Source: Deferribacterales bacterium (GTDB taxonomy: Bacteria; Chrysiogenota; Deferribacteres; Deferribacterales; Geovibrionaceae). From it: DNA of 64,000 nucleotides. Made by a program: the position numbers and the translations under genes. The notes beneath the pieces were generated by a model. The model ran no database searches and was not told the origin of the DNA. It saw only the letters and a list, made by a program, of their open reading frames with translations. This document shows, piece after piece, positions 48,189 to 64,000 of the stretch. Where the stretch lies: NCBI GenBank assembly GCA_050253075.1, contig JBFWJS010000004.1, positions 96,001-160,000 of the forward strand, given 5' to 3'. Position 1 is the stretch's first letter. Every line of letters starts with the position of its first letter.

Positions 48189-48264
48189 GCCCAGGTAGCT
48201 CAGTCGGTAGAGCAGGGGACTGAAAATCCCCGTGTCGATGGTTCGATTCCGTCCCTGGGCACCA
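48189..48264 (+). tRNA. tRNA-Phe(GAA)
   Basis: GCCCAGG...CCTGGGCACCA; loop CTGAAAA; CCA encoded. Confidence 0.97.
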
Positions 48265-48293
48265 TTTTTTATAATACTATCAATGATTTACAC

Positions 48294-48326: not shown

Positions 48327-48345
48327 GTGGTACACTCGTGGTACA
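48327..48345. repeat. Tandem GTGGTACA direct repeat, candidate integrase arm-type sites
   Basis: GTGGTACA-CTC-GTGGTACA about 60 bp inside the island edge. Confidence 0.6.
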
Positions 48346-48438
48346 TTTTTGATTGAGATCTTGTGGTTAGGATTGGTTAAAAGTAGTGTATTATGAAATG
48401 TTTAGCCTTTGTTAAAGCATGAGTAATATAACATAGAG

Positions 48439-48825
48439 CTATTTTTCTAAAATATTGATAGATTTCGCCACCAAATATTCTGGAAATAATTCTAAGCTAA
48501 ATCCATTAATAATCAGATATATCTTCTTTTCAACTTCATTGAGTTTCGGATAAATCTCATCATTCAAGAATCCTTCATCCACTAAGTTCTTTAGTTTAAG
48601 GTCTCTTTCGGCTAAATCTTCCTCAAGCTCTTCTTTAGAATTAAACTCGCTGCCATTTATTAAAATACAAGCGACTAAATTCTTATATATTTCATCGTCA
48701 GTATTGACTGAATCTACCGTGTCTTGATAAATCTTCTTAAATGTATTCTTAGCTGATCTATCTTTGAAAAAGATCACAGCTGATACTCCGATGATAACCA
48801 TTACAAACATAGTTACTAATTTCAT
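48439..48825 (-). CDS. Hypothetical membrane-anchored protein
   Basis: GAGG RBS; N-terminal TM segment. Confidence 0.65.
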   Translation of the reverse strand: MKLVTMFVMVIIGVSAVIFFKDRSAKNTFKKIYQDTVDSVNTDDEIYKNLVACILINGSEFNSKEELEEDLAERDLKLKNLVDEGFLNDEIYPKLNEVEKKIYLIINGFSLELFPEYLVAKSINILEK

Positions 48826-48895
48826 ATTCTTGACCTCGCTATAAACTTTCCCAATTATGAATTAACTCAAAATAAATCGCCACTGAATTGGTCGG

Positions 48896-49231
48896 CTATC
48901 TGTCTAATTCTAGTTCCAATTCAATAATTCTTTCCTCTAGCTCATTAATTTTCTCTTCTAGCGTTGTTGCCTCATCGAAAGTGTTTTTGTTACTTATGTT
49001 TTGATAAACTTTGTTGAAATGGAAATTGGCTTCTAATGTATTTAAATGGTTTTGGAATGAATTTGATTCTATGCTGAAAATCAAGTATCCAATAACTACA
49101 TATAATCCATACTCGAAATAAATTATCATTAATATAGCAATAATTAGCTTAATTGCAGTAAATGAAATAATGCTAAAATATTTGCTATCCTTTTTTGATT
49201 GGATATTAATGTCATAATCAAGCATAAACAC
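48896..49231 (-). CDS. Hypothetical membrane protein with C-terminal coiled coil
   Basis: AGGAG RBS before GTG; hydrophobic middle, LEEKINELEERI. Confidence 0.6.
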   Translation of the reverse strand: MFMLDYDINIQSKKDSKYFSIISFTAIKLIIAILMIIYFEYGLYVVIGYLIFSIESNSFQNHLNTLEANFHFNKVYQNISNKNTFDEATTLEEKINELEERIIELELELDR

Positions 49232-49324
49232 GCTCCTACGAATTTATTACTTAAATCATAACTCATATTTTACATAATTGTGTATTTGATTGTACTTATG
49301 CTATTATCAATGTGAGGTATTGAT

Positions 49325-49996
49325 ATGGAATTAACAAAAATCATGATGTTGGTATGTTTCGCACTCGTTTTGGTTTCATGTGGCAGTAGGTATGGACTAG
49401 ATGTTACAGGATATGGCGATATTAGTAATGAAATAAAAACTTATGATGTTGCATTAACACCACAGCTGAAAAAAGACCTCGAATATATGGAATATGTGAA
49501 GTTGCTTGATAATAAAATGAGATGTCTGGGGTGGACTAAAACAACTGACAATCCTATATACCTTGTGCATCTTCAAGCTGGAATTGATGGAGGACGTAAT
49601 TCTACCTCTGCTGTACCAATATTTGGGCAAACAGGTGGTGGCTCAAGTTATACTACTGGTTCTTTTAATACAACAAGCACATATGGAACGTACACAGCGC
49701 GAACAACTTACTCTCCAAGTTTCGGAATGGTAGGAGTATTACCTGTAAATGTAACAACCTATACTCGATATGTTACGATATCCTTATATGATCCGACTAA
49801 TAGTACAGAAACTCCTGTATGGATGGGAAAAACCATTAGTAGAGGGTCAACGGGAGTCCTAAACAAAGTAATGCCTGTGTTGATGGAGTATACAGTTAAA
49901 GAAATTGGTAAAAGTACTAATGGAACAAAAAGTTTTACTGTAACATTATCTGAAAAAGACGTTGAGCAGCTACGAACAACCTGTAGTGTCAGGTAA
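49325..49996 (+). CDS. Lipoprotein (DUF4136-like)
   Basis: GAGG RBS; lipobox LVSC; YTRYVTISLYD...VWMG. Confidence 0.75.
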   Translation: MELTKIMMLVCFALVLVSCGSRYGLDVTGYGDISNEIKTYDVALTPQLKKDLEYMEYVKLLDNKMRCLGWTKTTDNPIYLVHLQAGIDGGRNSTSAVPIFGQTGGGSSYTTGSFNTTSTYGTYTARTTYSPSFGMVGVLPVNVTTYTRYVTISLYDPTNSTETPVWMGKTISRGSTGVLNKVMPVLMEYTVKEIGKSTNGTKSFTVTLSEKDVEQLRTTCSVR

Positions 49997-49998
49997 TT

Positions 49999-50027
49999 CT
50001 ACTCAGCCCATTTTTCGTTCTAAATTG
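49999..50027 (+). repeat. 29-bp arm-spacer-arm site A
   Basis: CTACTCAGCC-CATTTTTCG-TTCTAAATTG. Confidence 0.65.
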
Positions 50028-50124
50028 AATCTCGCCCAATTCTGTCCAAAACTTATAAAAATTCAGTAACTGCATCCTGTAATAATGAACAATAAATATG
50101 TATTTGCTCGTTAGTGGTGCTTAC

Positions 50125-50178
50125 GTGAAAATCATTAAGAACTTAAAAGACGACAATGTAGAAATATATCAGCGAGGA
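50125..50178 (+). pseudogene. 5' remnant of a second copy of the island integrase
   Basis: VKIIKNLKDDNVEIYQRG vs integrase MKIIKSLQDGDVALYQRG (12/18 counting the shared GTG start). Confidence 0.75.
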
Positions 50179-50188
50179 ATATTCCTCG
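50173..50188. repeat. GAGGAATATTCCTC palindrome copy 1
   Basis: CGAGGAATATTCCTCG. Confidence 0.9.
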
Positions 50189-50338
50189 TTGAACAGATTA
50201 TTATTATGTTCAAACTGTTCATAGATTGTTACAATATCACACTGAAAATCACTTATGATGTTACGGCTATCTGTATCATGATAGTCATATTATATTTCGT
50301 TGGTAAAAGCACAAAAGAGATGAAGGTAAAGTTGAGCT

Positions 50339-51118
50339 ATGACATCTGAAAAATTTGGTTATTCTGAAAAATCATCTAAAGAGATAATGCATATTTTCTG
50401 GAAAAATTTGCAAAAAGATCCTAAGAACAGAAAATTTCTGTTTTTCTACATTATGATAAGTGAGAAACAGTGCTTCACAAGTAATGAAAGTTTCATGCAC
50501 ATTTTAGAAATGATACCTGCTCTAACCCCAGAGCAAGAAATAAAAGACTTATATATTGAATTGCTTGCAGTTATAAAAAAAATAATGCCAGATACAGGGC
50601 TAACAAACAAAGAGGAACTGGTTAATAATTGTCTCGAAAATCCTGAACTTATAACAAGTATGACAGAAGTAGCAAAAGAAGATAGAGACTATTACGATGC
50701 ATTAAAAGAAGTTATCAGGATTTATATCGAAGATGTTGACCTTGACGTATCACAGATACCTTTCAAAACACAAGTAGCATTCTTAGACTGTTTTTCCGAA
50801 ACTCAAAAAGCACCTATAAGCAAAAAGAAAAATTTGATCCGAACGGATTACAGAAAAGCTTTTTCCGTATGGGCATTAAACGCATTTTTTGGGATAAACC
50901 CAACAAGAAATGACAAAACAGATCGGAATACTAATCCATGTGGATGTGATTTTGTCGCAGATGCTGAAAATTGTAAGTACGGTGAAATAAAAGAGCTTTG
51001 GTTCGATCATAAATTTAAGTTTTACCGTATGTCTGAGATCGAAGATATTTCATACATAATTAAAGATAAAGAAAATAACAAAACTTTATTTTCTCTGGGT
51101 TCAGGGCTAAGTAAGTAG
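50339..51118 (+). CDS. Hypothetical protein, paralog 1
   Basis: Colinear similarity to 51252..52052. Confidence 0.8.
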   Translation: MTSEKFGYSEKSSKEIMHIFWKNLQKDPKNRKFLFFYIMISEKQCFTSNESFMHILEMIPALTPEQEIKDLYIELLAVIKKIMPDTGLTNKEELVNNCLENPELITSMTEVAKEDRDYYDALKEVIRIYIEDVDLDVSQIPFKTQVAFLDCFSETQKAPISKKKNLIRTDYRKAFSVWALNAFFGINPTRNDKTDRNTNPCGCDFVADAENCKYGEIKELWFDHKFKFYRMSEIEDISYIIKDKENNKTLFSLGSGLSK

Positions 51119-51130
51119 CTTTATATCATC

Positions 51131-51144
51131 GAGGAATATTCCTC
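51131..51144. repeat. GAGGAATATTCCTC palindrome copy 2
   Basis: GAGGAATATTCCTC starting 13 bp after the paralog 1 stop. Confidence 0.85.
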
Positions 51145-51251
51145 TCTGCCCAAGACACAAGTTACTTATGAACGCCTTGCTGACTCATAAGAGAAGACAT
51201 ATGAAGCAGTGTTGAATTGACTAATAGATAATTTCTGAGAGGCAAGCCAAT

Positions 51252-52052
51252 ATGTTTACAGATAATAACGAGTACAAAAATGAAATAGAACTTTTGTGTG
51301 AAGAAGAAGCAAAAGAACGGATGAAGTCCTTTTGGTCAGCATTAATAGCTAATCCAGATTATAAAAAATTTCTTTATTATTATATTTTGACAAGTGAAAA
51401 GCAATATTTCAAAAATGACGAGGCTTACAGGCAAATTGAAGAAGAGTTAGAAACCATAACCAAAAATCAAAACGAAGAAGATGTCTATCATGAATTTCTT
51501 GAAGTCATAAAGAAATTGTTGCCCGACACAGAACCAACAAACAAAGATCAGATTATTAAAAAATGTGTCAGCAATCCAGATTTTATAAGACATGTTGCAA
51601 TAAATTCAAAAACAGACAGAGACTACTACGATGCTTTCATGGAAGTCATGAAAATGCTTTTTGAAGATAAGATAAGCATATTAGAGCTACCACCAGAAGC
51701 ATATACTGTATGGTTAAGTTTTACTTGTGGTGCATTAAATCCTACTCAGGCTAAGAAGAAAGTTCTAATCACTGAAGAGCATAGAAAAGTATTTTCCGTA
51801 TGGGCACTAAATGAGTTTTTTAAAGTAAAGCCAAGCACAACTGTTAATGGGGACAAAAACGGTGTTGTTAAGACTTGTGGATTCGACTTAGTAGCCAATG
51901 CTGAATATACTAGTTATGAAGCAATGAAAACACTCTGGAGTAATTATAGGCGTAAAAATACTTACAAATTTTATCGCTTATCTGAAATTGAAGATTTGCC
52001 AGTGATAATAACTGATGAAAACAAAAAGCTACTATTCGAAATAAACGACTGA
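51252..52052 (+). CDS. Hypothetical protein, paralog 2
   Basis: Shares SEKQ, PDT, DRDYYDA, FSVWALN, KFYRxSEIED with paralog 1. Confidence 0.8.
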   Translation: MFTDNNEYKNEIELLCEEEAKERMKSFWSALIANPDYKKFLYYYILTSEKQYFKNDEAYRQIEEELETITKNQNEEDVYHEFLEVIKKLLPDTEPTNKDQIIKKCVSNPDFIRHVAINSKTDRDYYDAFMEVMKMLFEDKISILELPPEAYTVWLSFTCGALNPTQAKKKVLITEEHRKVFSVWALNEFFKVKPSTTVNGDKNGVVKTCGFDLVANAEYTSYEAMKTLWSNYRRKNTYKFYRLSEIEDLPVIITDENKKLLFEIND

Positions 52053-52202
52053 TCATACATGATATTTAACCTCATCATCCTGAATTAATAATCTCCGTGT
52101 GGCACAACCACATCAAATCTTCCCCACTTATTTTTACCACTCATCACAGATATAGTTTTCTTAACAAATGGCTCGCAAGAGTCAAAAAAAGGAGACACTA
52201 TT

Positions 52203-52784
52203 ATGTGTAAATTAAACAATGTATCAAAAATGTCCGAAGAACAAAAAACTATGTCAGCAGAGCTTAATGACTATCTGTATCGAATTCATGAAGCTATCAG
52301 CGAAGCCAGAAAATCATCTTATAACATTTTCGCTGTATTTCTTGAGGCGCATGAGAATCTTAGCAACATTGAGTTCAATGATTTCTTAGACAAGGTTGAG
52401 TATGAAAAGAGCAGTATCAACAAGATGATGAAAATCTGTAAAAACAAGACTCTAGTCAAGCACATCGGCTTAGGGGGGCTTCCTGAAAGTTGGGGCACAC
52501 TTCATCAAATCGCATTTCTGAAAGAAAGTGATATTGATAACTTCATTAGTGACGGTTCACTAAACAAGAACTCGACCTTTAATGACGTTACGAAGTTACG
52601 TGATTCTACCAAGACTAACTCTGCTAGTACTGGCAGTAAACGTTACGTTCTTCAATTTAAAGAATCTGTCGAAATAGACAACATTGCAAAAAATGAAATA
52701 AAGCAAGCCATAAAAATATTTGAGAAGTACTTTTCTACTGATGGCAAATTATTCAACAAAATATTTGGAAATAGTGAAGGTTAA
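52203..52784 (+). CDS. Phage-type hypothetical protein (DUF3102-like)
   Basis: AGGAG RBS; KMMKIC...LPESWGTLHQI motif. Confidence 0.6.
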   Translation: MCKLNNVSKMSEEQKTMSAELNDYLYRIHEAISEARKSSYNIFAVFLEAHENLSNIEFNDFLDKVEYEKSSINKMMKICKNKTLVKHIGLGGLPESWGTLHQIAFLKESDIDNFISDGSLNKNSTFNDVTKLRDSTKTNSASTGSKRYVLQFKESVEIDNIAKNEIKQAIKIFEKYFSTDGKLFNKIFGNSEG

Positions 52785-52786
52785 TC

Positions 52787-53407
52787 ATGAATAACATGAA
52801 AACATTCGATGATTTCATATTTCATTCAGTACTAAGGAATGAACTAAAATATCTGCTAAATAACCCAGAGAGGATTCCAAGTCCTCTCTGCTTCTACGGC
52901 AGACCAGGCAACGGCAAGACATCTTTTGCTAATTATATAGCAGAAACATTTTGCTCTGAAGGATTTTACTATGACATGAATGAATACAAAAAGAGTGGTG
53001 CAAGTAGTGGGAAACTGCTGGAAACCATTAACCGTTATGCGTCTATGGCAACAATAAATGATGAAAGCAAACCTCTAGGTAAATGTATAATACTCGATGA
53101 ATGGCACAACGCCACATACTCGCAACAAGATGCATATAAAGTGCCTTTTGAAACGTACTCGCAAAAAGCAAACGTACTATTCATACTATGCTTAAACACA
53201 GACTGGAGCCTGCCCATTGAAAAGGCTCTTAGTCCTGCTATTAAGTCTAGGTGTCACTGTGTTTCATTTGATACAAGAAGTTCACAGTTGCCAGAACTTA
53301 AAGCACTAGTTAGTGAGCGATACCCTAATTTGAGTGAGACACAAATAGCTACTGCTTTACCAGACATGCGGGTAATACAGAGACTTGCTGATATGTACTC
53401 AGCTTAA
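52787..53407 (+). CDS. AAA+ ATPase of the clamp-loader clade (RFC/gp44-like)
   Basis: KTFDD, GRPGNGKTS, IILDE, FILCLN, AIKSRC, PDMR. Confidence 0.8.
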   Translation: MNNMKTFDDFIFHSVLRNELKYLLNNPERIPSPLCFYGRPGNGKTSFANYIAETFCSEGFYYDMNEYKKSGASSGKLLETINRYASMATINDESKPLGKCIILDEWHNATYSQQDAYKVPFETYSQKANVLFILCLNTDWSLPIEKALSPAIKSRCHCVSFDTRSSQLPELKALVSERYPNLSETQIATALPDMRVIQRLADMYSA

Positions 53408-53421
53408 GTTCATCAATAATG

Positions 53422-53447
53422 ATCAGCGAGGAATATTCCTCGCTGAT
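53422..53447. repeat. GAGGAATATTCCTC palindrome copy 3 (26-bp perfect)
   Basis: ATCAGCGAGGAATATTCCTCGCTGAT. Confidence 0.92.
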
Positions 53448-53553
53448 TTATTTTCTGAATGCCTGACCGTTTTTATGCAACTCCCCAGCATAACCATTAA
53501 CTAAAGATGTATTTCTTAAACTAGGAATATTATAATCACTACGAGGTGTTTAA

Positions 53554-54759
53554 GTGAAGATTATCAAGAGTTTACAAGACGGTGACGTAGCTCTTTACCA
53601 GAGAGGTAAATACTACCACTGCCGACTGAAAGTGAATAACGAATATATTAAAAAATCATGCAAAACAAAGCATTTAAATGAGGCTGAGAAGTTCGCCTTA
53701 GACAAGTACCTTGAGATCAGGTACAGAGCGGAACATAACCTTCCGATTGAGTCTAAAAAATTCCAGAATGTTGCACATATAGCAATCAGGAACTTACAGA
53801 ACCAACTGGATTCAGGGGATGGCAAGGAGGTCTATTCTCACTACATTGGTTGCTTGAGGCGATATTTCATTCCTTTTTTCAAAAACAAGAACATCGACCT
53901 GATCGGGTACAAAGAAATGAAAGAGTTTGACGAATTCAGAAGAAAGAAGATGGGTAGAGTCCCATCTGCATCTACAATCAAGACTCACACTTCTGCCCTG
54001 AACTATGTCTTTGACATTGCAATTCAGCATCAGTGGATATTGAAGTCACAAATTCCACACCCCAAAAATCAAGGGCGTAAAGCGAGCAGAAGACCGCATT
54101 TTACTAGAGAAGAGTACAGGAAACTCGTTAGGAACATGACTGAATGGTCTAAAACAGGTCACAGAAAAACAACTCGTGATATCAGAGTGCTACTGAGAGA
54201 CTATGTACTGATTCTGGCACATACTGGCATGAGGTGTGGTAGGGAAAGTCTAAACCTTAAATGGAATCAAATCGAGTTCTTTAAGCATAATGGTGATGAA
54301 TATCTCAAGTTCTATGTTGATGGAAAAACAGGTAAGAGAGAACTGATTGCTCACAATAATATAAGAACCTATCTGGAGCGGATTAAGGACAGATTTGAGG
54401 ATTTGAAAGACTTATCTCTGAAAGAATGTACCAATTCAAATGAGTATGTTTTCAGAACTCCTGACGGTAGGAGACCGGGAAATCTGCTTAGAAGTTTTGA
54501 ACAGCTTCTGGTTTATTGTGACCTGTTACATGACAAGTACGGAGACAGAAGAACCCTTTACTCTATTCGCCACACATACGCTACAAAACAACTGAGCAAA
54601 GGAGTTAATATTCACCTACTCGCAAAACAGATGGGGACATCGGTAAAAATGATTGAGGAACACTACTCGCATCTGGTTCCGTCCATGTCTGCGGATATGT
54701 TATCTGGCAGGAATCATTTCAAAGAAGAAATAAATAGTATAAAAGTGGTGGTTAAATGA
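53554..54759 (+). CDS. Tyrosine integrase
   Basis: TGMRCG, GKTG, YSIRHTYAT, QMGTS, EEHY; N-terminal arm-binding-like region. Confidence 0.93.
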   Translation: MKIIKSLQDGDVALYQRGKYYHCRLKVNNEYIKKSCKTKHLNEAEKFALDKYLEIRYRAEHNLPIESKKFQNVAHIAIRNLQNQLDSGDGKEVYSHYIGCLRRYFIPFFKNKNIDLIGYKEMKEFDEFRRKKMGRVPSASTIKTHTSALNYVFDIAIQHQWILKSQIPHPKNQGRKASRRPHFTREEYRKLVRNMTEWSKTGHRKTTRDIRVLLRDYVLILAHTGMRCGRESLNLKWNQIEFFKHNGDEYLKFYVDGKTGKRELIAHNNIRTYLERIKDRFEDLKDLSLKECTNSNEYVFRTPDGRRPGNLLRSFEQLLVYCDLLHDKYGDRRTLYSIRHTYATKQLSKGVNIHLLAKQMGTSVKMIEEHYSHLVPSMSADMLSGRNHFKEEINSIKVVVK

Positions 54760-54941
54760 GTTTCATAGAAATGCTAAAAAAATCTGATAAGAATTGCTTT
54801 GAGTACGACGGGGCTTATATCCTGATTTCAGAGACTAAGGCAGAAATTGTTCATGTCCGAGAAGGTCAGGTTAAGTCCTCGTACTTCAAGCTAAAAATCC
54901 CCAAGAGATTAAAGAGATCTGAGATCATCTATCTCGGATAA
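54756..54941 (+). CDS. Small hypothetical protein coupled to the integrase
   Basis: ATGA overlap with the integrase stop. Confidence 0.5.
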   Translation: MSFIEMLKKSDKNCFEYDGAYILISETKAEIVHVREGQVKSSYFKLKIPKRLKRSEIIYLG

Positions 54942-55016
54942 TTGGCAGAACAATTATGAATTACCGTCGTTGTGAGCTCAAAAAGGTCATCAACTTGAAG
55001 CCTACCAGATTATAAT

Positions 55017-56129
55017 TTAATTTTCTGTTACCTCACAATATTCAATCGAACTATTTATAATGCGTACTTTTTTTATGTCTCCATTTGGTTTTGCTGAATC
55101 AACGCCGAAAAGAACATAATTATCACCTGTAGCTTTATTACTCTTGTATTTAACCCCATGAACAAAAGGTTTTCTACGGTCATCAGATCGTAATGATTTA
55201 AGATATTCACACAAATATTGTGTTGGTAGATATTCAAATTCACTGTTTTCTTCTAATACCGGCTTATTTAACTCCTGTGCAACATAATTCAAAAGGTCAC
55301 GGTAACGTAATTTATCTTTAAATCCATCAACAAACGGAGACTCAATAACCATTTCTTTTCCCAAATCAAGAATTCTCAATTTTTTAACAGCATTAAACTT
55401 TACATAACAGACTTCTGTCTTTACAGGTGGTCGAACCTCATTTATTGCTGTATCAACGTCTGAAGCTAAATACAAGTACGGTATCCCTTTTGGGTTAGCT
55501 CTTCCAGAATTAGCCTTACCAAATGGAGGAGCTTTCAAATCTTTAAATTTGTATTTAGCACCTCCATCATGAATCCGTGCTCTATAAAAGATTTTAGATG
55601 CGTCTACAATTTCATAATTTTTGAATGTAGCGATTCCTGTTTTAATTAAACTTTCAAAATCTTCAAAATCTCTGCCTCTTAATAAAAATCTATTCTTGAA
55701 AATTATGCTTTGAGATATTTTTTGAAAACAAATCTTTCCGTATTCACTATATAAAGAGGAACGATTAGGGAAAATACGACCTATACTATTTGCTGATAAC
55801 TGCAATATAGAATCTTTCTCATCTTTAAAAAGATCGCTTAGTATCAATTCGCATCTCGATTGAGCGATAAACATGTCCCAATCTTTCTGTATTCCTTGAA
55901 AAAGATTAATTTCCCATTTTGATAAAAATGCTGCTCCAAAAATGGAATCGTTGTTATTGATAACTTTATAGAAATTGATTAATTCTAGGAATCTTTCTTT
56001 TAAGGCTAAAATATCTATGACATGATCTCTTATGGCATTACAGTAAGAGCATTTCCCACTGTGCCCTGACTTCAATATATCATTTTTAATAATTTTATCG
56101 TTAAAACACTCTGTACAACAATAACTCAT
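55017..56129 (-). CDS. RES-domain protein with N-terminal Cys-rich region
   Basis: CTECF...CSYC; YRAR, GRANPKGIPYLY, EVRP, YLPTQ, YKS; start at ATG 56129. Confidence 0.88.
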   Translation of the reverse strand: MSYCCTECFNDKIIKNDILKSGHSGKCSYCNAIRDHVIDILALKERFLELINFYKVINNNDSIFGAAFLSKWEINLFQGIQKDWDMFIAQSRCELILSDLFKDEKDSILQLSANSIGRIFPNRSSLYSEYGKICFQKISQSIIFKNRFLLRGRDFEDFESLIKTGIATFKNYEIVDASKIFYRARIHDGGAKYKFKDLKAPPFGKANSGRANPKGIPYLYLASDVDTAINEVRPPVKTEVCYVKFNAVKKLRILDLGKEMVIESPFVDGFKDKLRYRDLLNYVAQELNKPVLEENSEFEYLPTQYLCEYLKSLRSDDRRKPFVHGVKYKSNKATGDNYVLFGVDSAKPNGDIKKVRIINSSIEYCEVTEN

Positions 56130-56212
56130 GTCTTGCCTCACAATTTTTACGTTAATAAAAACACAACTAAATTGCAATTCAATTACGATATGTTTAGAGT
56201 GTACTTCTAAGT

Positions 56213-56845
56213 CTAAAATAAATCCATTGTGCTGTTCGACTGATCTATAGAGTTGAACAATTCCTCGTTATGATATTTCAGATAAATCAGCGTGTTATTG
56301 ATTGATTTATGTCCCAAGAATTTCTGTAAGAGAACTATGTTCATACCTGTTGAGAGAAGGTGAATTGCTCTGGAATGGCGGAACATATGAGAATGTCCGA
56401 AACTCTCTTTAGACTCTCCCAGAGTCCTCCTGATTAGTTTTCTCAGCCTGTACCAGATAGCAGGGTTGGAGATTTGCTTCTTTCCAGATTTCTTTGAAAA
56501 GATGTAGTCCGAATTATTCATATAGTTTTCAGTCTTATGAAGCATGAGTAATTTGGTGAGTTCGGACGAGAGTTTCAGGATACGAAAAGAGGGTTTTCTT
56601 TGCTTAAGTGTCATGACCTTAACCTTGTTCTCATAGAACATAACATCATCAAATTTCACGTTCATCCCTTCTGTTATTCTACATCCAGTCTCGAACATGA
56701 ACAGGAACACCATTTTCCAGAATTTTGAATCCTCTGCCGAAATCAGGGTCATTATATCGGACACATGAAGGTACTTGATTTCGTCTGATTTTTCAGATTT
56801 GACCACTTGAACTAATGTAGTATCACAGATTTGTATTTCTTGCAT
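56213..56845 (-). CDS. Small tyrosine recombinase (ResD-like resolvase)
   Basis: TGCRITE, TLKQR, HMFRHS, LGH, TLIY; no arm-binding domain. Confidence 0.88.
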
Positions 56846-56851
56846 AAATAG

Positions 56852-56900
56852 CTCCTAGATTTAGACTTTTACCACTTGGTTATTATATTAAATCTAGGAG
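56852..56900. promoter_or_regulatory. Inverted repeat upstream of the resolvase (candidate res site or operator)
   Basis: CTCCTAGATTTA-25bp-TAAATCTAGGAG. Confidence 0.7.
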
Positions 56901-56988
56901 AGAAATACAGAGAAGAAATAGCATAAAGCTATTAAATACCAATAGTTTAGTTATCAGCATTTAACATTATAGTTCATTCTATTAAATT

Positions 56989-57017
56989 CAATTCAGACCG
57001 TTTTTCGTTCTAAATTA
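56989..57017 (+). repeat. 29-bp arm-spacer-arm site B
   Basis: CAATTCAGAC-CGTTTTTCG-TTCTAAATTA. Confidence 0.8.
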
Positions 57018-58463
57018 ATAGGTCTTTTCAGAGAAGCCAATAATCATGTTCAGTTCTTGGTAGATGAATTGCCTCAGTTCATTTACATCAATTTTACCAT
57101 CAAAGATTACACAGTCATGTATCTGGTAAAAATCAGCGATTCCTTTGCTTTCAATAAATTCAATCATCTTTAATCTAACCTGCCGTTCAACCAGTTCATA
57201 GATTCTGTAAATTCTCCTATCATCTAGAGATTTGCCCCTGCCTTTCCCTTTAAGTGTTTGATTATGTTCCTGTATCTCAGCATCAATCATGTCTTTGAAA
57301 TCCTTAACCCTGATATTGCCAATCTTGAAGAATTCATTTGAATCAGAATTTTGGTGATAGAACTTTTCAAGAACTCTTTCCCTTAGTTTATTTGTTTCTG
57401 CGATATACGGTTCAACTAGTTTCTTGCATTGAAGAATTGATTTTGGCGAAAAAAGATTATTCCTCTGTTTGCAGTATTTGTATATGATTCTGCTCTTTGG
57501 CGAGTAGCTAATAGAAGTAATGATCTCTTTTGCCAGCGGTTCACTGCATCTGAAAACATTGGTGTATTTCCATCTGAACATTGACTTATTGGTTATCAAT
57601 GAATAATGGGCTGGGAAATCTTCTTTAAGATAACTCAGAGAATTCCTCTTGCTCTGAATAATCGTGTTCATGTAATACAGGTTCACCAGAACAGATTGAA
57701 TGGCAGAGTTAATATCTATTTCCGTGTATCCCTTCAATATCACTGACCTGAAATTCTTTGAAAACATACCTATTGTCGTGTATTCCCTTCCGTGCCCCTC
57801 AAGGCTCGACTTTAAGACCTCGTTTTCAGCATATACATATTCACTATCACTACCGATGCAGTTATTCAGCAGTATAAGGAAATCATCACAAAGCCCTTTC
57901 TTAAACTCCTTGTACAGCTTCAAGAAGATGTCTTTTCTCACTTTGATAAAACTATCTGCTTTTTGATCTGCATCGGTTCTGAGAACTGTTCTAATCTTCT
58001 CTTTATGAGCATCTTCGTAATATTGGAACTTATCTAAGTACTTGATCTGTCTAACTGTCAGCCACATTGCAGTATCAACAGCTTTATTGATTAAATCAGA
58101 ATATGTATACCAATGTGGGTAGCCATTACGCTCTGAACCTTTGCTGTTGTTTCTGTGATATGTCGAGTTATCCCCCCTTCGGAAGAATACAAAATACTTA
58201 CTGAGCTTGTTCCTCTTTAATATTGCTAAGTCAGTACTGAAAATGTGGTATTCGTCAACATGTCCGCTACTGGGAAGGTGCTTATTCTGGTAAGAATAAC
58301 TGATTATCTTGGCTAATGTTTCAACCAACCCTTTCAGCGTTAAATGATGGTACTTCACATCCTTGTACTTTCTCAGGATTCTAATCTGGTTTAATATCTT
58401 TTTATTCAGAACTAATTCTAACTTCTCTTGAAATATCTGTTTCATATCTGGCATGTTATTCAA
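57015..58463 (-). CDS. Minimal family-A/T7-like polymerase (TV-Pol-like), start uncertain
   Basis: GREY, motif A EIDINSA, motif B AKEIITSISY (K-x7-Y), motif C QIHDC. Confidence 0.7.
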   Translation of the reverse strand: MNNMPDMKQIFQEKLELVLNKKILNQIRILRKYKDVKYHHLTLKGLVETLAKIISYSYQNKHLPSSGHVDEYHIFSTDLAILKRNKLSKYFVFFRRGDNSTYHRNNSKGSERNGYPHWYTYSDLINKAVDTAMWLTVRQIKYLDKFQYYEDAHKEKIRTVLRTDADQKADSFIKVRKDIFLKLYKEFKKGLCDDFLILLNNCIGSDSEYVYAENEVLKSSLEGHGREYTTIGMFSKNFRSVILKGYTEIDINSAIQSVLVNLYYMNTIIQSKRNSLSYLKEDFPAHYSLITNKSMFRWKYTNVFRCSEPLAKEIITSISYSPKSRIIYKYCKQRNNLFSPKSILQCKKLVEPYIAETNKLRERVLEKFYHQNSDSNEFFKIGNIRVKDFKDMIDAEIQEHNQTLKGKGRGKSLDDRRIYRIYELVERQVRLKMIEFIESKGIADFYQIHDCVIFDGKIDVNELRQFIYQELNMIIGFSEKTY

Positions 58464-58713
58464 TTAAGTGATTTGACCGAGAAGCTCACGAGCGGAAACT
58501 AAGAGTTCTAATACAGTAATGTTTGATGAACCAAAACCAAACAAAAAAGCAACTTTTACTGCTAAGGAAAACTAATCCCTTCTTTGTGTTCCTTTAGTTC
58601 CCTTCTATTAGTTCTAACCTCTTATTTCTTTATTTCTCTTTAATCACCTTTCCTTTAATTTTCCTCTATTATGTTGAACAAGTAACAACCACTTAACCTA
58701 GTTAAATGGCTTT

Positions 58714-58742
58714 TAATTCAGAATATTTTTCGTTCTGAATTA
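58714..58742 (+). repeat. 29-bp arm-spacer-arm site C (perfect arms)
   Basis: TAATTCAGAA-TATTTTTCG-TTCTGAATTA. Confidence 0.82.
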
Positions 58743-58982
58743 GTCCTGTCTTTCTCTTAGTTCTCTGATTAGATCGGCTGTACTGATTGGTTGTATTGCA
58801 GGTTTCATGACCTCTTGTTCCTGAACAATATTGCTTCTTGTACTCTCAGTACCATGCTTGTAATGATGCTCTTTTACCAGATCACAGATAAATGAACTCA
58901 TATTGTTTGACGATGTTTTCAGAATCTCGTAAACCTCTTCTGTAACTGATATTGTCATTGCCTTTTTCTTGTAGTTTTTCAT
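58740..58982 (-). CDS. Ribbon-helix-helix-like small DNA-binding protein
   Basis: AAGGAG RBS; KAMTISVTEEVYEILK...NMSSFICDLV. Confidence 0.7.
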   Translation of the reverse strand: MKNYKKKAMTISVTEEVYEILKTSSNNMSSFICDLVKEHHYKHGTESTRSNIVQEQEVMKPAIQPISTADLIRELRERQD

Positions 58983-59153
58983 GATTTTATCTCCTTTAGA
59001 TAATATTATTTATATCTCTAAATAGGCATTTAAATACTCACAGCGACACAGATAATGGCTAAATAATAGTTTATTACCATATGTTTAACTAAAGAGAGTA
59101 TGAGTCATTTATGAATATTAAGGAATGAACAGGATAAATCCCGAAAGTTATAT

Positions 59154-59173
59154 AGCGAGGAATATTCCTCGCT
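59154..59173. repeat. GAGGAATATTCCTC palindrome copy 4 (20-bp perfect)
   Basis: AGCGAGGAATATTCCTCGCT. Confidence 0.9.
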
Positions 59174-59266
59174 TGTTAGATTTTTTCATATATGGACGTA
59201 CTTGGTTTTAGAGTAAATTGTCTTTGTATCTTTTTGGTGCTAAAATCACCATTAGTGAGGTCAAAC

Positions 59267-59620
59267 ATGAGAACAAACTCTAAAAGCTACATTCAAAATA
59301 ATTTCCCCGACTTACTTCAATATAAATGTACTACTAGTCGCATGTATGAGAGCAAAGATAAATCTAGCTATAATGATAACTGGTGGTTCAACTTCAATCT
59401 TAATGATTTAGGGAAGGACGATTACATAGTATTTGCAGGAGCTTTAGACTACAATAATCAGGATTTTCGCATTTACAAAGTACCAGTTGATTTCATTAAG
59501 AATAATCTCCAACATCTTTATAACAAAGAAGGATTTGTAATTTTGTATATCACTATGGAATCATCTATCGACATCAGGACAAAAAACAAAATTTCTTTCA
59601 ATGCTTTTAGATTAAATTAA
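59267..59620 (+). CDS. Hypothetical protein
   Basis: GAGG RBS before ATG 59267. Confidence 0.7.
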   Translation: MRTNSKSYIQNNFPDLLQYKCTTSRMYESKDKSSYNDNWWFNFNLNDLGKDDYIVFAGALDYNNQDFRIYKVPVDFIKNNLQHLYNKEGFVILYITMESSIDIRTKNKISFNAFRLN

Positions 59621-59649
59621 GCATAAACTTGGCAAGATAAAGTTCAAAA

Positions 59650-59677
59650 AAGGAGCCTCCCTATCGGGAGACTCCTT
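59650..59677. terminator. Hairpin between convergent genes
   Basis: AAGGAGCCTCCC-TATC-GGGAGACTCCTT with upstream A-run. Confidence 0.65.
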
Positions 59678-59715
59678 GAGACCTATATTATTCCCTTTGT
59701 TTGTAGATTTAGCTG

Positions 59716-60969
59716 TTATAAGGAACTGGCATAGCCAATGAGTTCATTGTAATCCAGAGTTCCGTAGTTATCTGAGAAATTGAACCAACCAGAAAGACCA
59801 AATGGTGCTGATTCTGTATTCTGCTCTGATACAGAGTCAATTCGGGTGAGAATATTCCTTGTTGTTGCTTCAAGCTCAAAATCATCGACAGTACAGCCGT
59901 CAAAATCAGCAGACGATTTATTCACGATGTTCTGAATCTCGTACATGTTCTGAGTTCCGGCAATGTCATTCAGAATGTCTTCATCAGCATAGATGTAACC
60001 CTCTGAACTCTGACATGTATAATCGGAATCATCACCGAGCCTTGATTCAAAAGTGGTGAATGTATAGACCTCAGTGTTCGAGTCAGGATTCTGTCTCACT
60101 CTTTCACTATAAGATATTGGTCTGATTTCGGTTTCCAGATCATCTTCTACTTTAGTGAGTTCGTAGATTGTTCTCTCGTTAGTGAACACGATTACGTCTT
60201 TATACCAAGCATCTGGATAAGCATTTTTGTTGTCGATTTCACTGCCCTGATAGTATTGAACCATTACAAAGTTAGTGTCACCGTACTGTGCTTTGAGAGC
60301 AAGTGTGTCCTCAAGAGACTTGGCAAGGACAGGTACAATGTCTCCTGCAAGGTCATGAGCGACAGCATTCTGTTCTTCTACATAGTCAGAATAGAGTTCT
60401 TCTTCTGTAAGCCCAAGTGTCTGAGACACGTTCTGAACTGTTTCATCCATGAGCAAAAGAATGTCCTGAACTGCTGATGGGTTTGATGAGAAATAGTCAC
60501 ATGTTACATCTGCACCATATTCCTGAAATATCATGCTCTGAATCTTAGTCCAGAGAACAGAAGTTAAAGGTGTGATGTGAGCTGTTGTTTTCTCAGTTGT
60601 GCCGCCAAAATTTGGTGTTCTGAACATCTGATATGCTTCTGTTACTGTGCCATTCTCTAGGTCAACTGCACCGACAGGAACATCAACCACGAGTGGCGAG
60701 TTCCAAGCACATGCTTTCTGTGTTTCATCTTCAAAAGTCAGGTTAAAGAGTCCGCCTTCTCCAGATACTACAGATGGTTCACCATCATCAAGCTCACCGT
60801 TGTAGTTCAGGTCATAAAAGATTGTTGCTCCTTCAATGTAACCATCAATGACCTTACCTGCCATATCAGCAGTGGTTAAGTCTGAATCTGATGAACTGGA
60901 AGACGAACCGCCACCTCCACATGCAGTCAAGGAAAGAAGCACTAATAACATCAAGCAGTATCTTTTCAT
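59716..60969 (-). CDS. Acidic surface lipoprotein
   Basis: GGAGG RBS; lipobox LTAC plus GGGGSSSS; GKVIDGYIEGATIFYDLNYNGELDDGEP, ITPLTS. Confidence 0.8.
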   Translation of the reverse strand: MKRYCLMLLVLLSLTACGGGGSSSSSSDSDLTTADMAGKVIDGYIEGATIFYDLNYNGELDDGEPSVVSGEGGLFNLTFEDETQKACAWNSPLVVDVPVGAVDLENGTVTEAYQMFRTPNFGGTTEKTTAHITPLTSVLWTKIQSMIFQEYGADVTCDYFSSNPSAVQDILLLMDETVQNVSQTLGLTEEELYSDYVEEQNAVAHDLAGDIVPVLAKSLEDTLALKAQYGDTNFVMVQYYQGSEIDNKNAYPDAWYKDVIVFTNERTIYELTKVEDDLETEIRPISYSERVRQNPDSNTEVYTFTTFESRLGDDSDYTCQSSEGYIYADEDILNDIAGTQNMYEIQNIVNKSSADFDGCTVDDFELEATTRNILTRIDSVSEQNTESAPFGLSGWFNFSDNYGTLDYNELIGYASSL

Positions 60970-61042
60970 TGTAAAACCTCCATAAATGATTGTAAAAATT
61001 AGATTTTATAAGGTTATTCACTTATAAATCTTCGACAATAGA

Positions 61043-61058
61043 ACCGCATATATGCGGT
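61043..61058. promoter_or_regulatory. Perfect palindrome, candidate operator of the XRE regulator
   Basis: ACCGCATATATGCGGT in a divergent intergenic region. Confidence 0.65.
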
Positions 61059-61092
61059 GTATAAACTTTAAACTTTAATGCAGAATTTGTAA

Positions 61093-61311
61093 ATGGATAA
61101 TATCAATTTAAGATTTGCAAAAACGCTTAGAATGTTACGAACTGAAAGGAACATGACTCAGGAAGAACTGGCAGAAAAGTCAGGTATTGACTATAAGTAT
61201 CTTCAGAAATTAGAAGGGCAAAATCCTTCATCACCAACATTATCGACCCTTGAAAAACTTGCCAAAGGGTTGAGTATAACAATAATACAGCTTTTAGCAG
61301 ATATTCAGTAA
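61093..61311 (+). CDS. XRE-family HTH regulator
   Basis: LRMLRTERNMTQEELAEKSGIDYKYLQKLE...PTLSTLEKLAKGL. Confidence 0.9.
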   Translation: MDNINLRFAKTLRMLRTERNMTQEELAEKSGIDYKYLQKLEGQNPSSPTLSTLEKLAKGLSITIIQLLADIQ

Positions 61312-61501
61312 TACACGCAGCATTTCAGCCGTGTTATTGAACGATATTTCTGTTGCTCTTAATGTGTCAATTTCAGAGCTAATGCAACACGACCACAAAG
61401 ACGATAGCGAACTTCTAAAGAAAGAGGTCATAAAGTATATCAACAATGCCAGCCCAGAAACCATTCAGAAGATATACTTCTTTATTAAGAATATATTATA
61501 G
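61310..61501 (+). pseudogene. C-terminal remnant of another XRE regulator
   Basis: NTRSISAVLLNDISVALNVSISELM...TIQKIYFFIKNIL; lacks the first HTH helices. Confidence 0.55.
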
Positions 61502-61515
61502 ATGACTATATGATA

Positions 61516-61544
61516 CAATTTAGACCATTTTTCCTTCTGAATTA
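61516..61544 (+). repeat. 29-bp arm-spacer-arm site D
   Basis: CAATTTAGAC-CATTTTTCC-TTCTGAATTA. Confidence 0.78.
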
Positions 61545-61599: not shown

Positions 61600-62322
61600 C
61601 TAAATGATATTTTTAAAAACAACAATAAAAGCACAAAGAATAAGCATCAAGTTAACTATTACAGAGAAAGTCCTGTCGCTAATTTTCCTGAGGAATTTAC
61701 GACCAAAATAATTACCCGTAACCGCCCCAACTCCTGCTATAACCCCAATAAGCAAGACTTTGGAATCTATCATGCCAACTGTAGTGTATGTGCCTGCTTT
61801 GAATAATTGCATAACAATAACAACAGCAGCTTTTGTGCCTAGTAGCATTTCTTTTTGCATGCCATAGTTCATGTAAAACGGATTCATTAAAGGACCGCCC
61901 ACACCAACAATCCCTGATATAAAAGAAGAGATTGTTCCGGCTATTGGAAAGTGCCAGTTTTTAACTTGAAACAGCTTTTTCTCTTTGAAAAATAGTGCCC
62001 ATACGCCATTTAACAAATAGAATCCTGCCAAAAAATATGCAATTACCACAGGGTTAACAAAAGAGAATAGGTAAGCTCCAGACACCGCTCCGATTATGAC
62101 ACCCGGCATAACAAGCAATGAGACTCTAACATTAATTGATTTTCTGTATAAGACTATTCTGCTTAAACCAGACAACAAACCTGCAACAGCGACAGCAGGT
62201 GCTACTGTCTGTATCGAAAAGAACATTCCTGAAACAGGGACAAAAATCATTGCCCCTCCGCCACCAGCCAGAGTACTGAAAAACCAAGATAAAGCACCTA
62301 AAACAAAAGGTAATAAAAGCAT
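61600..62322 (-). CDS. TauE/SafE (TSUP) family transporter
   Basis: AGGGGAMIFVP and GVGGP repeats; multiple TM segments. Confidence 0.9.
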   Translation of the reverse strand: MLLLPFVLGALSWFFSTLAGGGGAMIFVPVSGMFFSIQTVAPAVAVAGLLSGLSRIVLYRKSINVRVSLLVMPGVIIGAVSGAYLFSFVNPVVIAYFLAGFYLLNGVWALFFKEKKLFQVKNWHFPIAGTISSFISGIVGVGGPLMNPFYMNYGMQKEMLLGTKAAVVIVMQLFKAGTYTTVGMIDSKVLLIGVIAGVGAVTGNYFGRKFLRKISDRTFSVIVNLMLILCAFIVVFKNII

Positions 62323-62343
62323 AATCCCTCATGTAATAATGTA

Positions 62344-63258
62344 TTAAAATTCTATAACTATCTTTCCCATATCTTTTGTGTCGTAACCGCCAATATGGGC
62401 AAATTCATCTCTGAAAGCATCTGAACGTATTATGCTTAATAAAGATTCAATCTCAGGAGTCCCCATATCTTCTCTCTTGAATACTAAGTCATACCTTTCT
62501 TTTTTGATTGGAACAAATTCAATGCCTTCAACTTGTTTAGCGATTTTCTCAGAACCGATAGCGACATCAGCCTTTCCTGAAGCAACAACACTTGCGACAG
62601 TTAAATGAGACTGGATTTCTTTTTCGTATCCTGAAATATCCTTTCCGAAAATACCTAAAAGTCTGAGGTTCTCATCCAGCAGTACCCTAGAGCCTGAGCC
62701 TTGTTCACGGTTGACCATCGTTATGTCATCACGCCTAAAGTCTTCCCATTTTATTATATTTTTCGGGTTTCCTTTGGCGACATAAAAACCTTGGATGCGA
62801 CAGGTTAAGTGGACAATAACAGCAGGAATCCCAGGTAGCAGTCTACGCACATAAGGAACATTGTATGTGTCAGTGTCGCTGTCCCAGAGGTGGGCTGATG
62901 CAACACTTACCTGATTCCGATAAAGAGCGACAAGGCTATCATAGCTCCCAATGTATGCTCGCAATGCAGGTGTATTATGCTGACGCATATAGTTTGAGAG
63001 TATATCCAGTATTATATCCTGACCACATAACACAAACCCTTTATTTGCGATACCACTGATTGCTTCATTTTTAACGGGGATATTCGCTTGTTTGCGACCT
63101 TTAATATATGATTTGACATCATCTTCTGAAAAACGAATTTTCCGTCCAACTTTGTAAGATGGTAACTCACCGTTTTTTATTAAGCTATAAACCTTGCTCT
63201 TACTGATTTTTAGCATTTCGCTAATATCTTCTACAGAAAGCTCATCTCTTGACATCAT
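62344..63258 (-). CDS. Excisionase-type HTH plus PBP-domain regulator (oxyanion-sensing family)
   Basis: LSVEDISEMLKISKSKVYSLIKNGELPSYKVG; GSYDSL, AHLWD, NREQGSGSR, ERYD; GGAGG RBS. Confidence 0.88.
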   Translation of the reverse strand: MMSRDELSVEDISEMLKISKSKVYSLIKNGELPSYKVGRKIRFSEDDVKSYIKGRKQANIPVKNEAISGIANKGFVLCGQDIILDILSNYMRQHNTPALRAYIGSYDSLVALYRNQVSVASAHLWDSDTDTYNVPYVRRLLPGIPAVIVHLTCRIQGFYVAKGNPKNIIKWEDFRRDDITMVNREQGSGSRVLLDENLRLLGIFGKDISGYEKEIQSHLTVASVVASGKADVAIGSEKIAKQVEGIEFVPIKKERYDLVFKREDMGTPEIESLLSIIRSDAFRDEFAHIGGYDTKDMGKIVIEF

Positions 63259-63272
63259 AAAGCCTCCAAATC

Positions 63273-63300
63273 TTGACAAATACGCCAATTAATTTAAAAT
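63273..63300 (+). promoter_or_regulatory. Putative sigma70 promoter of the gap paralog
   Basis: TTGACA-16bp-TAAAAT. Confidence 0.5.
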
Positions 63301-63422
63301 AAGACATAAAGCATAATTTATACATGTTTTAGTGTTATTTAATCTATTTAAGCACAGCTCAAGACGAGAAACAAGAACATTTAAGTTGAAAATTATTTCT
63401 TAATAAAACAAGGAGTGATTCT

Positions 63423-64000
63423 ATGAATAAAAAAATTGCAATTAATGGATTTGGAAGGATAGGTAGAGTTTTATTTAAACAGATTATTAACGATGACAGA
63501 TATGAAGTAAAAATAATAAACGATCCCGCAACAACAGAGATGATGGTTTACTTATTAAAACATGATAGTACTCTTGGCACAATGGATATGCAAAACGAAT
63601 TGAAAACGGGCTGTGATTTCATAGATGTACATGGACAACATATACATACAACACATGAAATTGAGCCAGATAACCTATTATGGGGTAAATACGATATAGA
63701 TATTGTAATCGACTGCTCAGGCACTTACCTTTCTAAAGAGAAAGCACAGAAGCATCTTGATGCCGGAGCAAAGAAAGTCATATTGTCTGCCCCTGCTGGT
63801 CATGATATACCAACTGTCGTATACGGAGTTAATACAGAAATATTGACATCAGATGACCGTATCATTTCTGCGGCATCTTGTTCTACCAATGCACTTGCGC
63901 CTATGGTGAAAGCCTTGAGTCAGTATGCCAATATTTTAGCTGGGAACATGCTTACAGTTCACGGATATACTGCAAGCCAAGTTCTTGTGGATAATGCACA
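63423..64000 (+). CDS. gap: Type I glyceraldehyde-3-phosphate dehydrogenase paralog (3' partial; not in ORF track)
   Basis: AGGAG RBS; MNKKIAINGFGRIGR, IND, GAKKVILSAP, SAASCSTNALAP. Confidence 0.92.
   Translation, partial: MNKKIAINGFGRIGRVLFKQIINDDRYEVKIINDPATTEMMVYLLKHDSTLGTMDMQNELKTGCDFIDVHGQHIHTTHEIEPDNLLWGKYDIDIVIDCSGTYLSKEKAQKHLDAGAKKVILSAPAGHDIPTVVYGVNTEILTSDDRIISAASCSTNALAPMVKALSQYANILAGNMLTVHGYTASQVLVDNA

Follow-up and report, generated by a model that had tools for sequence, protein, structure and literature searches.

A tRNA-associated island with two families of repeated sites

We analysed a 64,000-nucleotide stretch of a Deferribacterales genome (assembly GCA_050253075.1, contig JBFWJS010000004.1, positions 96,001 to 160,000 of the forward strand), referred to below as the window, which ends within an integrated island of 16.5 kb (48220-64724). 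The genome, labelled G000, is 3.04 Mb in size; the window lies on its contig C4, and positions of 64000+ are past the window end. The island extends from a tRNA-Phe gene to an attR core and has a GC content of 35.3%, compared to 46.6% for the genome, the low-GC DNA starting directly after the tRNA gene. It contains two tyrosine recombinases, a minimal DNA polymerase, a short ATPase and two families of repeated sites, a 29-bp site (site A) and a palindrome (site B). The features are collected in Table 1.

Table 1. Features of the island, in order of position; values above 64000 are past the window end.
Feature	Position	Strand	Remarks
tRNA-Phe(GAA)	48189..48264	+	integration target
attL core	48220-48267		starts in the anticodon loop of tRNA-Phe
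Two GTGGTACA repeats	48327..48345	+	likely arm-type sites of the integrase
Cargo slot 1	48439..49996		128-aa, 111-aa and DUF4136 lipoprotein genes
Site A1	49999..50027	+	left arm degenerate
Leader and integrase relic	50028..50178	+	conserved leader plus 18-codon relic of integrase 5′ end; ends in B1
Site B1	50174..50187
Two paralogous genes without family	50339..52052	+	259 and 266 aa, 40% identical, separated by B2
Site B2	51131-51144
193-aa protein	52203..52784	+	candidate site B binder
AAA+ ATPase	52787..53407	+	short, clamp-loader clade, without C-terminal collar region
Site B3	53421..53448		core match at 53428; longest palindrome, also terminator-like
401-aa tyrosine integrase	53554..54759	+
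RES-domain cargo gene	55017..56177	-	no A or B at its borders
210-aa tyrosine recombinase	56213..56845	-	catalytic domain only
Site A2	56989..57017	+	ends on the polymerase stop codon (last three bases); lies 143 bp upstream of 210-aa gene start
482-aa family-A polymerase	57015..58463	-	minimal, TV-Pol-like
Site A3	58714..58742	+	ends on the 80-aa gene's stop codon (last three bases)
80-aa RHH-like gene	58740..58982	-	sub-threshold matches only
Site B4	59157..59170
Cargo and relic	59192..61501		142-aa gene, 417-aa lipoprotein, 72-aa XRE regulator, 56-aa relic
Site A4	61516..61544	+
A4-A5 module	61600..64000, onward to A5		TauE, HTH-PBP regulator, GAPDH-like gene
Site A5	64485-64513 (G000:C4:160485-160513)		past window end
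attR core	64677-64724 (C4:160677-160724)		48-bp identical repeat of attL, the tRNA 3′ half

An earlier note on this DNA had listed an integrase, a second tyrosine recombinase, an ATPase with an SRC motif, a polymerase open reading frame (ORF) and repeated sites, and all of these parts were recovered by profile, motif or fold. The element had been placed at 49999-61544, an extent that proved too short. Its four direct 29-bp sites are all in the window, although a fifth at 64485 makes that count incomplete, and the gene for a ribbon-helix-helix (RHH) protein before the polymerase is present, although its label comes from sub-threshold matches only. The statement that capsid, relaxase and type IV secretion genes are missing from the window held: family-profile scans gave no above-cut-off match to any of these families among the island ORFs scanned, and a tra region lies elsewhere in the genome, outside the island. 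No island ORF exceeds 482 aa, and neither the 259-aa nor the 266-aa protein had a family match. Close homologues of the integrase and the ATPase are labelled as Denitrovibrio proteins in the source databases, which puts the host in Deferribacterota. A promoter scan gave a signal no higher than in shuffles. We found no description of the island or its sites in the openly accessible literature that was searched.

Site A is a private, direct repeat

Site A is a 29-bp imperfect inverted repeat of the form 11-7-11 with a T-rich, asymmetric centre. A matrix built solely from 12 sites of other genomes, when run on the whole genome, returned exactly seven sites with scores of 32-45 (the best of 100 island shuffles scored 19.3). 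Five of these are the island copies, all direct, and two lie beside tRNA-Leu on contig C3. Twenty copies were aligned, and one from G027 with a 1-nt insertion was left out of the invariance count; six arm positions and three spacer thymines were invariant in the remaining 19, with the spacer asymmetric throughout. The A2 spacer differs from the other four island copies at one base.

The orientation is also conserved, with 13 of the 14 sites in G000 and the complete same-genus genome G023 being direct within their own island. G023 has seven sites, one of them inverted. This sole inverted site (L084:11439) lies ∼70 bp upstream of the RHH-like gene, where G000 has no site, and could flip that gene or its promoter.

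The A pattern was found in 5 of 68 genomes of the phylum (including a match with two mismatches in G053), and this patchy distribution means that A is therefore not a housekeeping site. In a metagenome scan, two of the 18 matches were real (L099 and L109); the other 16 lacked island genes and were treated as chance. There was no match in IMG/VR. We also considered whether A is the host dif site or a plasmid pdif site. A canonical dif-like 28-mer lies elsewhere, in the region of G000:C6:29909 near the GC-skew peak, which is likely the chromosome terminus; it differs from A in its arms and spacer length and is missed by the A matrix, and the host dif or pdif identity was rejected. It was located on C6 with what we take to be the XerD-arm motif.

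Modules bounded by A differ between related islands

G023 has islands at both tRNA-Phe and tRNA-Leu. At the site Phe2 in the former, the left flank of the G000 A5 is joined to the right flank of the G000 A1, and the homology blocks 61442-64519 and 50003-51360 meet inside this A site. The TauE-PBP-GAPDH module, which lies between A4 and A5 in G000, comes first after tRNA-Phe in G023. The RHH-like gene (a 94% copy beside an A site) and the lipoprotein-XRE block of the G000 island are found in the tRNA-Leu island of G023, which ends with an A site, the arm region that follows A5 in G000, and then the tRNA-Leu att core.

A second TauE-PBP-GAPDH module is present in G000 at C3:8059-11013 (L003:5060-8014), without recognisable A sites. 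It is 85% identical to the island copy of the same genome and 95.5% identical to the G023 copy, from 2 bp past one A to 4 bp into the next. It adjoins traE, traK and traB-like genes, and its place in this conjugative region is a possible route for module transfer.

Eight public runs were examined, and long contigs from X3, X5 and X7, which come from three studies, gave a similar picture. Each has the same backbone (193-aa protein, ATPase, integrase, resolvase, polymerase and RHH-like gene) with other cargo; there is one such contig in X3, two in X5 and several in X7. In X5, homology resumes within A1 (at 50003) and on the final base of A5 (64513); in X3 it resumes at 50057 and 64492. Cargo slot 1 is replaced by other DNA in G023, G030, G031, X3 and X5, and the A4-A5 module is replaced in X3 and X5. 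The slot of the 259-aa and 266-aa paralogues holds ∼1 kb of other DNA in X3. The DUF4136 lipoprotein gene of slot 1 (49325-49996) has a 29% paralogue on contig C9.

One X4 contig contains an attR-to-attL (attP-type) joint, from 64729 to 48292, with 54 letters on the short side and a depth of 6, as would be expected of an excised circle or a tandem copy. Contig depth was flat over the island in X1 and X2, which are possibly the source runs; contig depth does not give copy number.

Discrete modules between two A sites were also found. On C3, two direct sites right after tRNA-Leu(TAA) (G000:C3:91745-95346, L002) enclose a pair of genes, a GHKL ATPase with restriction-enzyme and spbK-like matches and a cytosine methyltransferase, and in L099 two direct sites enclose a single LUD gene. 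Remnants in G027, G030, G031, L099 and L109 retain, besides cargo, an A site or two together with either a piece of the leader or the decayed start of an integrase gene; the leader also follows A in C3, G023, G027, G030, L099 and L109. Cargo beside A in relatives includes a retron reverse transcriptase (RT)-Toprim gene, methyltransferases and an HNH protein. In G031 (L087:15955-17646), the cargo between tRNA-Phe and an A site is mainly the retron gene, which is of type I-C. In L089, L091 and L109, remnants of the same island family occupy a non-tRNA site, with cargo differing per genome; the flanking genes are presumably thiL-like and RNase J-like.

These comparisons bear out part of the earlier note. 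The element is integrative, its backbone is conserved and its modules vary; the genes co-occur elsewhere, in the X3, X5 and X7 contigs among others, and the sites are present in related islands. As to excision or shuffling of the modules by the element's own recombinases, some module borders fall at A and X4 has the attP-type junction, but no joint from one A to another was among those listed in the eight runs.

The two tyrosine recombinases

Both the 401-aa and the 210-aa recombinase score above the Pfam Phage_integrase cut-off and have the R-K-(Y/H)xxR-Y catalytic set. Against the integron integrase profile TIGR02249 they reached 49 and 19 bits, compared to a cut-off of 265. The 401-aa enzyme has a 50% homologue in G032, located ∼250 bp from a tRNA-Leu att repeat. 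The tRNA-Phe and tRNA-Leu cores start at similar anticodon loops, and the GTGGTACA arms are common to both island types. The left arm with GTGGTACA is the same in G023, G030, G031 and L109, and further copies lie at 64542 and, with one mismatch, at 64612, past the window end. The sequences thus suggest that the 401-aa integrase likely acts on the tRNA att core and that the GTGGTACA repeats are likely its arm-type sites.

The earlier note called the 210-aa recombinase ResD-like; the nearest contexts found for it are Tn3-family resolvases. Of 10 distant loci inspected, four have a relative (36-43%) next to a Tn3 transposase, and an 11-7-11 repeat is found 102-122 bp upstream of the recombinase in four loci (L120, L123, L124 and L127). 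The 210-aa enzyme is likely the resolvase of site A, and we infer that it, distinctly more probably than the integrase, recombines A. L120, L122, L123 and L124 are Tn3-family transposons in Spirochaetota metagenome-assembled genomes with the same short tyrosine recombinase family. Directly upstream of the 210-aa gene start there is a 12-bp perfect inverted repeat with a gap of ∼25 bp (∼56853-56901), which could be an operator or an accessory site. In G032, a Rep-like HUH gene (a sub-threshold Rep_1 match) lies between the integrase and resolvase homologues, a position that fits a replaceable replication slot.

Site B accompanies the 193-aa gene and the ATPase

Site B (GAGGAATATTCCTC) occurs at 50174, 51131, 53428 and 59157 and nowhere else in the genome, so that the four palindromes of the earlier note are confirmed and are exclusive to the island within this genome. 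Among 207 distinct perfect 14-bp palindromes, one of them an N run, it is, that run aside, the only one with four copies. The copies have a common 12-bp core, whose only four exact occurrences in the genome are all in the island; a host regulator box was rejected on this count.

Copies of B are also present in G023 and in the X3, X5 and X7 contigs. One X4 contig lacks the B1-B3 block, with the A1 leader joined straight to the integrase (50114 to 53545), and the block is therefore an optional insert. A tie between B and the integrase or resolvase was considered and rejected, as the integrase relics L089, L090, L091, L099 and L109 and the G032 element have no B. The distant IMG/VR record L174 (G071) encodes homologues of the 193-aa protein (30%) and the ATPase (37%) together with unrelated recombinases, and contains nine B cores within one mismatch, seven of them exact, in 12.4 kb, where the maximum in 300 shuffles was one. 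Judged by sequence, B thus accompanies the 193-aa gene and the short clamp-loader ATPase and not the recombinases, a link for which L174 is the one element outside the close relatives; the earlier view of both site families as recombination sites found no support for B.

L174 is probably an island rather than a virus. It also has a HUH Rep-like gene, an RHH-like gene, a short tyrosine recombinase and a large serine recombinase (labels by inspection). The exact B core was absent from 860 kb of loci L118-L172 and from 17 distant clamp-loader loci. Matches in G026, G028 and L173 were single copies without island genes and were discarded.

The 193-aa protein most likely binds site B. Its look-alikes in the Atlas are unnamed phage proteins, with DUF3102 on 13% of one cluster. 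The ATPase has Walker A, Walker B and SRC motifs, matches PHROG 168 (clamp loader) best, with an E-value of 3e-18, and covers positions 16-161 of the 322 in the RFC profile. It was found in only G023 among 67 other genomes of the phylum and in none of 401 genomes around G068; in IMG/VR, one locus of 18 was close.

Site B might in addition be a joining point, where an activity linked with the 193-aa/ATPase pair would insert or duplicate modules. This would be compatible with exchange at A, and we regard it as a tentative idea that is more probably wrong than right. The integrase relic stops at B1, B2 separates two paralogues and has an integrase-like left flank, two L174 copies have a common 11-bp left flank, and most L174 copies lie at gene borders. 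Against a joining role, homology to G023, X3, X5 and X7 passes through the common B sites and breaks 26-55 bp beyond them or never, and the L174 recombinases differ while the B core is the same. The centre of B is also symmetric, unlike most recombination spacers, which are asymmetric.

A minimal family-A polymerase

A structure model of the 482-aa protein had a pLDDT of 87. Residues 169-482 align to Pol nu, Klenow and T7 DNA polymerase with Z scores of 10.3-10.9 and an rmsd of 4.4-4.7 over ∼260 residues, and family-A folds ranked first in the structure comparison. Among viral models, virophage replication proteins ranked 7 and 9, above annotated PolA. R226 (the hairpin arginine) and the two palm aspartates, D250 and D450, are invariant in 34 sequences, as are K312 and H449. 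The arginine of the RxxxK motif is absent: position 308 is a glutamate and is variable across the family, with K312 invariant. At what we take to be the position of the ribonucleotide-excluding glutamate of Pol I, the fifth residue after D250, there is an isoleucine, which would suit a primase. The N-terminal 167-aa domain is modelled as helices and three short strands, with a best Z score of 5.6 and no clear fold match. Profile scans of the island ORFs gave no match to exonuclease families. The resolvase gene adjoins the polymerase both here and in X3, X5 and X7.

No polymerase homologue was found in the 67 other phylum genomes, three contig collections or 301 genomes around G069, nor among 72,556 plasmids or 50,697 phages. 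Its relatives are known as proteins alone, with 19 and 109 matches in two overlapping searches; 33 distant relatives had no Pfam match above the cut-off, and a profile search of solved structures gave no match. From its sequence we describe the enzyme as TV-Pol-like rather than as a member of TV-Pol, because position 308 is a glutamate and the RxxxK arginine is missing. The earlier note had taken it to be undescribed in kind; its kind has a precedent in TV-Pol (PMC2579912).

Comparison with known systems

The closest analogy is with the dif modules of Acinetobacter, in which short sites (pdif) separate backbone and accessory modules, with deletion, inversion and co-integrates between sites of matching spacers (PMC13141974). 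The island resembles these in that its backbone and accessory modules are divided by short recombination sites. It differs in that A is 11-7-11 with near-symmetric arms and no likeness to host dif (XerC arm, 6-bp spacer, XerD arm), that all five sites are direct with no alternating inverted C/D arrangement, and that the platform is not a Rep_3/OrfX plasmid but a tRNA island with an element-encoded candidate recombinase (PMC13141974). Compared with pdif-type rearrangement at matching spacers, one junction here has reassorted within A and other edges lie off A. Unlike integrons, the island has no IntI-level profile score, and A is by inspection a 29-bp arm-spacer-arm core.

The polymerase resembles that of resolvase- and integrase-linked TV-Pol elements in having a minimal family-A core, an extra N-terminal domain and no exonuclease, and in lying beside a lambda-type integrase and a resolvase among restriction-modification cargo (PMC2579912). 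The differences are the missing RxxxK arginine (E308), an N-terminal domain predicted as alpha/beta rather than all-helical, a resolvase that is a tyrosine enzyme, and the multiple internal recombinase-type sites, for which the available part of that paper describes no counterpart (PMC2579912).

In the Tn3 family, TnpI is a tyrosine resolvase with a core site upstream of tnpI, and hybrids that arise by recombination at the resolution site exchange modules, as shown for TnpR res sites (PMC7157771). A2, upstream of the gene for the probable tyrosine resolvase, may correspond to the TnpI core site; unlike in Tn3, there is no match to the transposase TnpA among the island ORFs, there are five sites rather than one, and we identified no counterpart of the accessory DR1/DR2 sites (PMC7157771).

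Like pipolins (bioRxiv 2024.05.22.595293) and tycheposons (bioRxiv 2020.12.28.424599), the island belongs to the elements of 10-20 kb that integrate at tRNA genes and combine a small replication core with fast-changing, often defensive cargo. It integrates with att repeats, as tycheposons do (bioRxiv 2020.12.28.424599), and has a family-A polymerase, not the piPolB of pipolins (bioRxiv 2024.05.22.595293). Unlike in both, the integrase is internal, starting 5.3 kb from attL, and there are internal recombinase-type sites, which the available parts of these two papers do not describe (bioRxiv 2024.05.22.595293, bioRxiv 2020.12.28.424599).

A minimal PolA on an integrative island is also found in the SCCmec system CcPol-MP-Cch2, where it has been tested biochemically and acts as a primase-polymerase (PMC7581432; bioRxiv 2022.12.02.518924). 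No above-cut-off family match to an MP-like single-stranded DNA-binding protein (SSB) or a D5-type helicase was found in the island, the polymerase neighbours being a resolvase and an RHH-like gene (PMC7581432; bioRxiv 2022.12.02.518924). A further difference is that the ATPase is of the clamp-loader clade and lies in a separate operon.

Models for exchange at site A

What is observed are the island borders, the sites, a conserved backbone, slot-wise change of cargo, one re-joining inside A and one attR-attL junction. The explanation that we favour, and to which we give slightly better than an even chance, is that the island consists of blocks bounded by direct A sites, and that its own 210-aa recombinase swaps such blocks between related islands. 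The 401-aa integrase would use the GTGGTACA arms to insert the island at, and excise it from, the anticodon loop of tRNA-Phe or tRNA-Leu(TAA). Once the island is excised, A would bound each of the five segments of the circle, the attP-bearing one among them. The resolvase, which would normally split circle dimers, could then fuse two related elements at one pair of A sites and split them at another, so that modules, often defence cargo, would be swapped or permuted. The TV-Pol-like enzyme may prime or copy the circle, and the 193-aa protein may bind palindrome B and act together with the short clamp-loader ATPase, the two making up a distinct module that is optional.

Several results weigh against this explanation. 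No A-by-A joint was present among the joints listed in the eight runs, whose contigs lose rare variants. A check of 10 loci for an empty tRNA-Phe site that runs on into the DNA beyond attR gave none. The polymerase module between A3 and A2 has not moved in X3, X5 or X7. The RES gene is gained and lost without any A site, being cleanly absent (joint 54942 to 56213) in X3, X5, X7 and X20; the left edge of slot 1 is at 48384, away from A; and the left edge of the A4 slot lies 15-19 bp before A4 in X3, X5 and the tRNA-Leu island of G023. As to the enzyme, G023 has its seven A sites and no close 210-aa homologue (best E-value 1e-11), and G032 has a 57% homologue and no A site in the 20 kb examined. 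The integrase leader follows A in at least 7 of the 20 sites, an arrangement that implicates the integrase no less than the resolvase. The shuffle test for upstream palindromes was weak: 3 of 11 loci had p<=0.05 for a 7-bp spacer, two of these being related and one AT-only, and A2 itself did not reach p<=0.05. For replication, no helicase or SSB partner gave an above-cut-off family match among the island ORFs.

A bolder form of the favoured explanation would be a self-contained cassette system, with a short tyrosine recombinase and a 29-bp direct site but no integron and no host Xer, combined with a second, undescribed module in which a small protein reads the 12-bp B palindrome, conserved in very distant elements, and recruits a shortened clamp loader to start minimal-PolA replication. 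The items traded within this family of Deferribacterota islands would then be defence and metabolic modules, the polymerase gene and even the attachment site. We consider this full scheme possible and a good deal less probable than block exchange as such.

A plain mosaic is a little less probable again. In it, the A sites would be left-over resolution sites from repeated co-integration and decay of related small elements. Cassette exchange would not operate, and cargo would be replaced through homologous or illegitimate recombination beside conserved DNA. The missing A-by-A joints and the edges off A listed above (RES, 48384 and 61497-61501) speak for it, as do the many remnants that end in a decayed integrase 5′ end and not at a site, and the insertion sequences that reshape the G023 islands. 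It accounts less well for the A5/A1 junction of G023, which changes partner within 29 bp, for the A-bounded single-gene and two-gene modules, for the two stop codons that coincide with the end of A, and for the conserved A spacers.

We think it unlikely that the 401-aa integrase, or else host XerCD, recombines or binds A, with the 210-aa enzyme using another site such as the inverted repeat upstream of its own gene. In the ancestral layout, site A does lie ∼100-130 bp ahead of the integrase start, also in the X4 joint (50114 to 53545), and G023 combines an integrase and A sites without a resolvase. However, the repeat used by the 50% integrase homologue of G032 is at tRNA-Leu, with no A in the 20 kb examined; the att cores of the islands are of the ordinary tRNA type, accompanied by arm repeats; and A is unlike host dif in both arms and spacer length.

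Least probable, and in our view improbable, is a phage satellite or self-replicating plasmid that relies on a helper for its amplification and packaging: the polymerase, RHH-like gene and resolvase are plasmid-like, the G032 element has its HUH Rep-like gene and L174 is an IMG/VR record, but there was no packaging, capsid or interference family (Pfam, PHROG) among the island ORFs, several of which have no family, the polymerase is unmatched in the plasmid and phage sets and the A pattern in IMG/VR, and the satellite proposed in the earlier note found no support.

Block exchange at A by the 210-aa enzyme, the explanation that we favour, involves parts that are of known kinds: a tRNA island, a TV-Pol-like enzyme and a resolvase. 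The novelty lies in how these parts are organised by a site that is private, repeated and direct and shows signs of exchange; by analogy this resembles dif modules but fails the tests of that family. Site-bounded shuffling of cassettes is known from integrons and from the dif modules of Acinetobacter, the latter borrowing the host XerCD. In addition, the island provides three components of an uncharacterised module, namely a DNA site (B), its candidate binder and an ATPase, as well as a minimal polymerase without RxxxK, a motif regarded as conserved. If the favoured explanation is true, the 210-aa enzyme and its 29-bp site would be a compact recombination tool, and the island would represent a third form of cassette, with a single element-encoded recombinase, that would explain the fast change of cargo in small defence islands.

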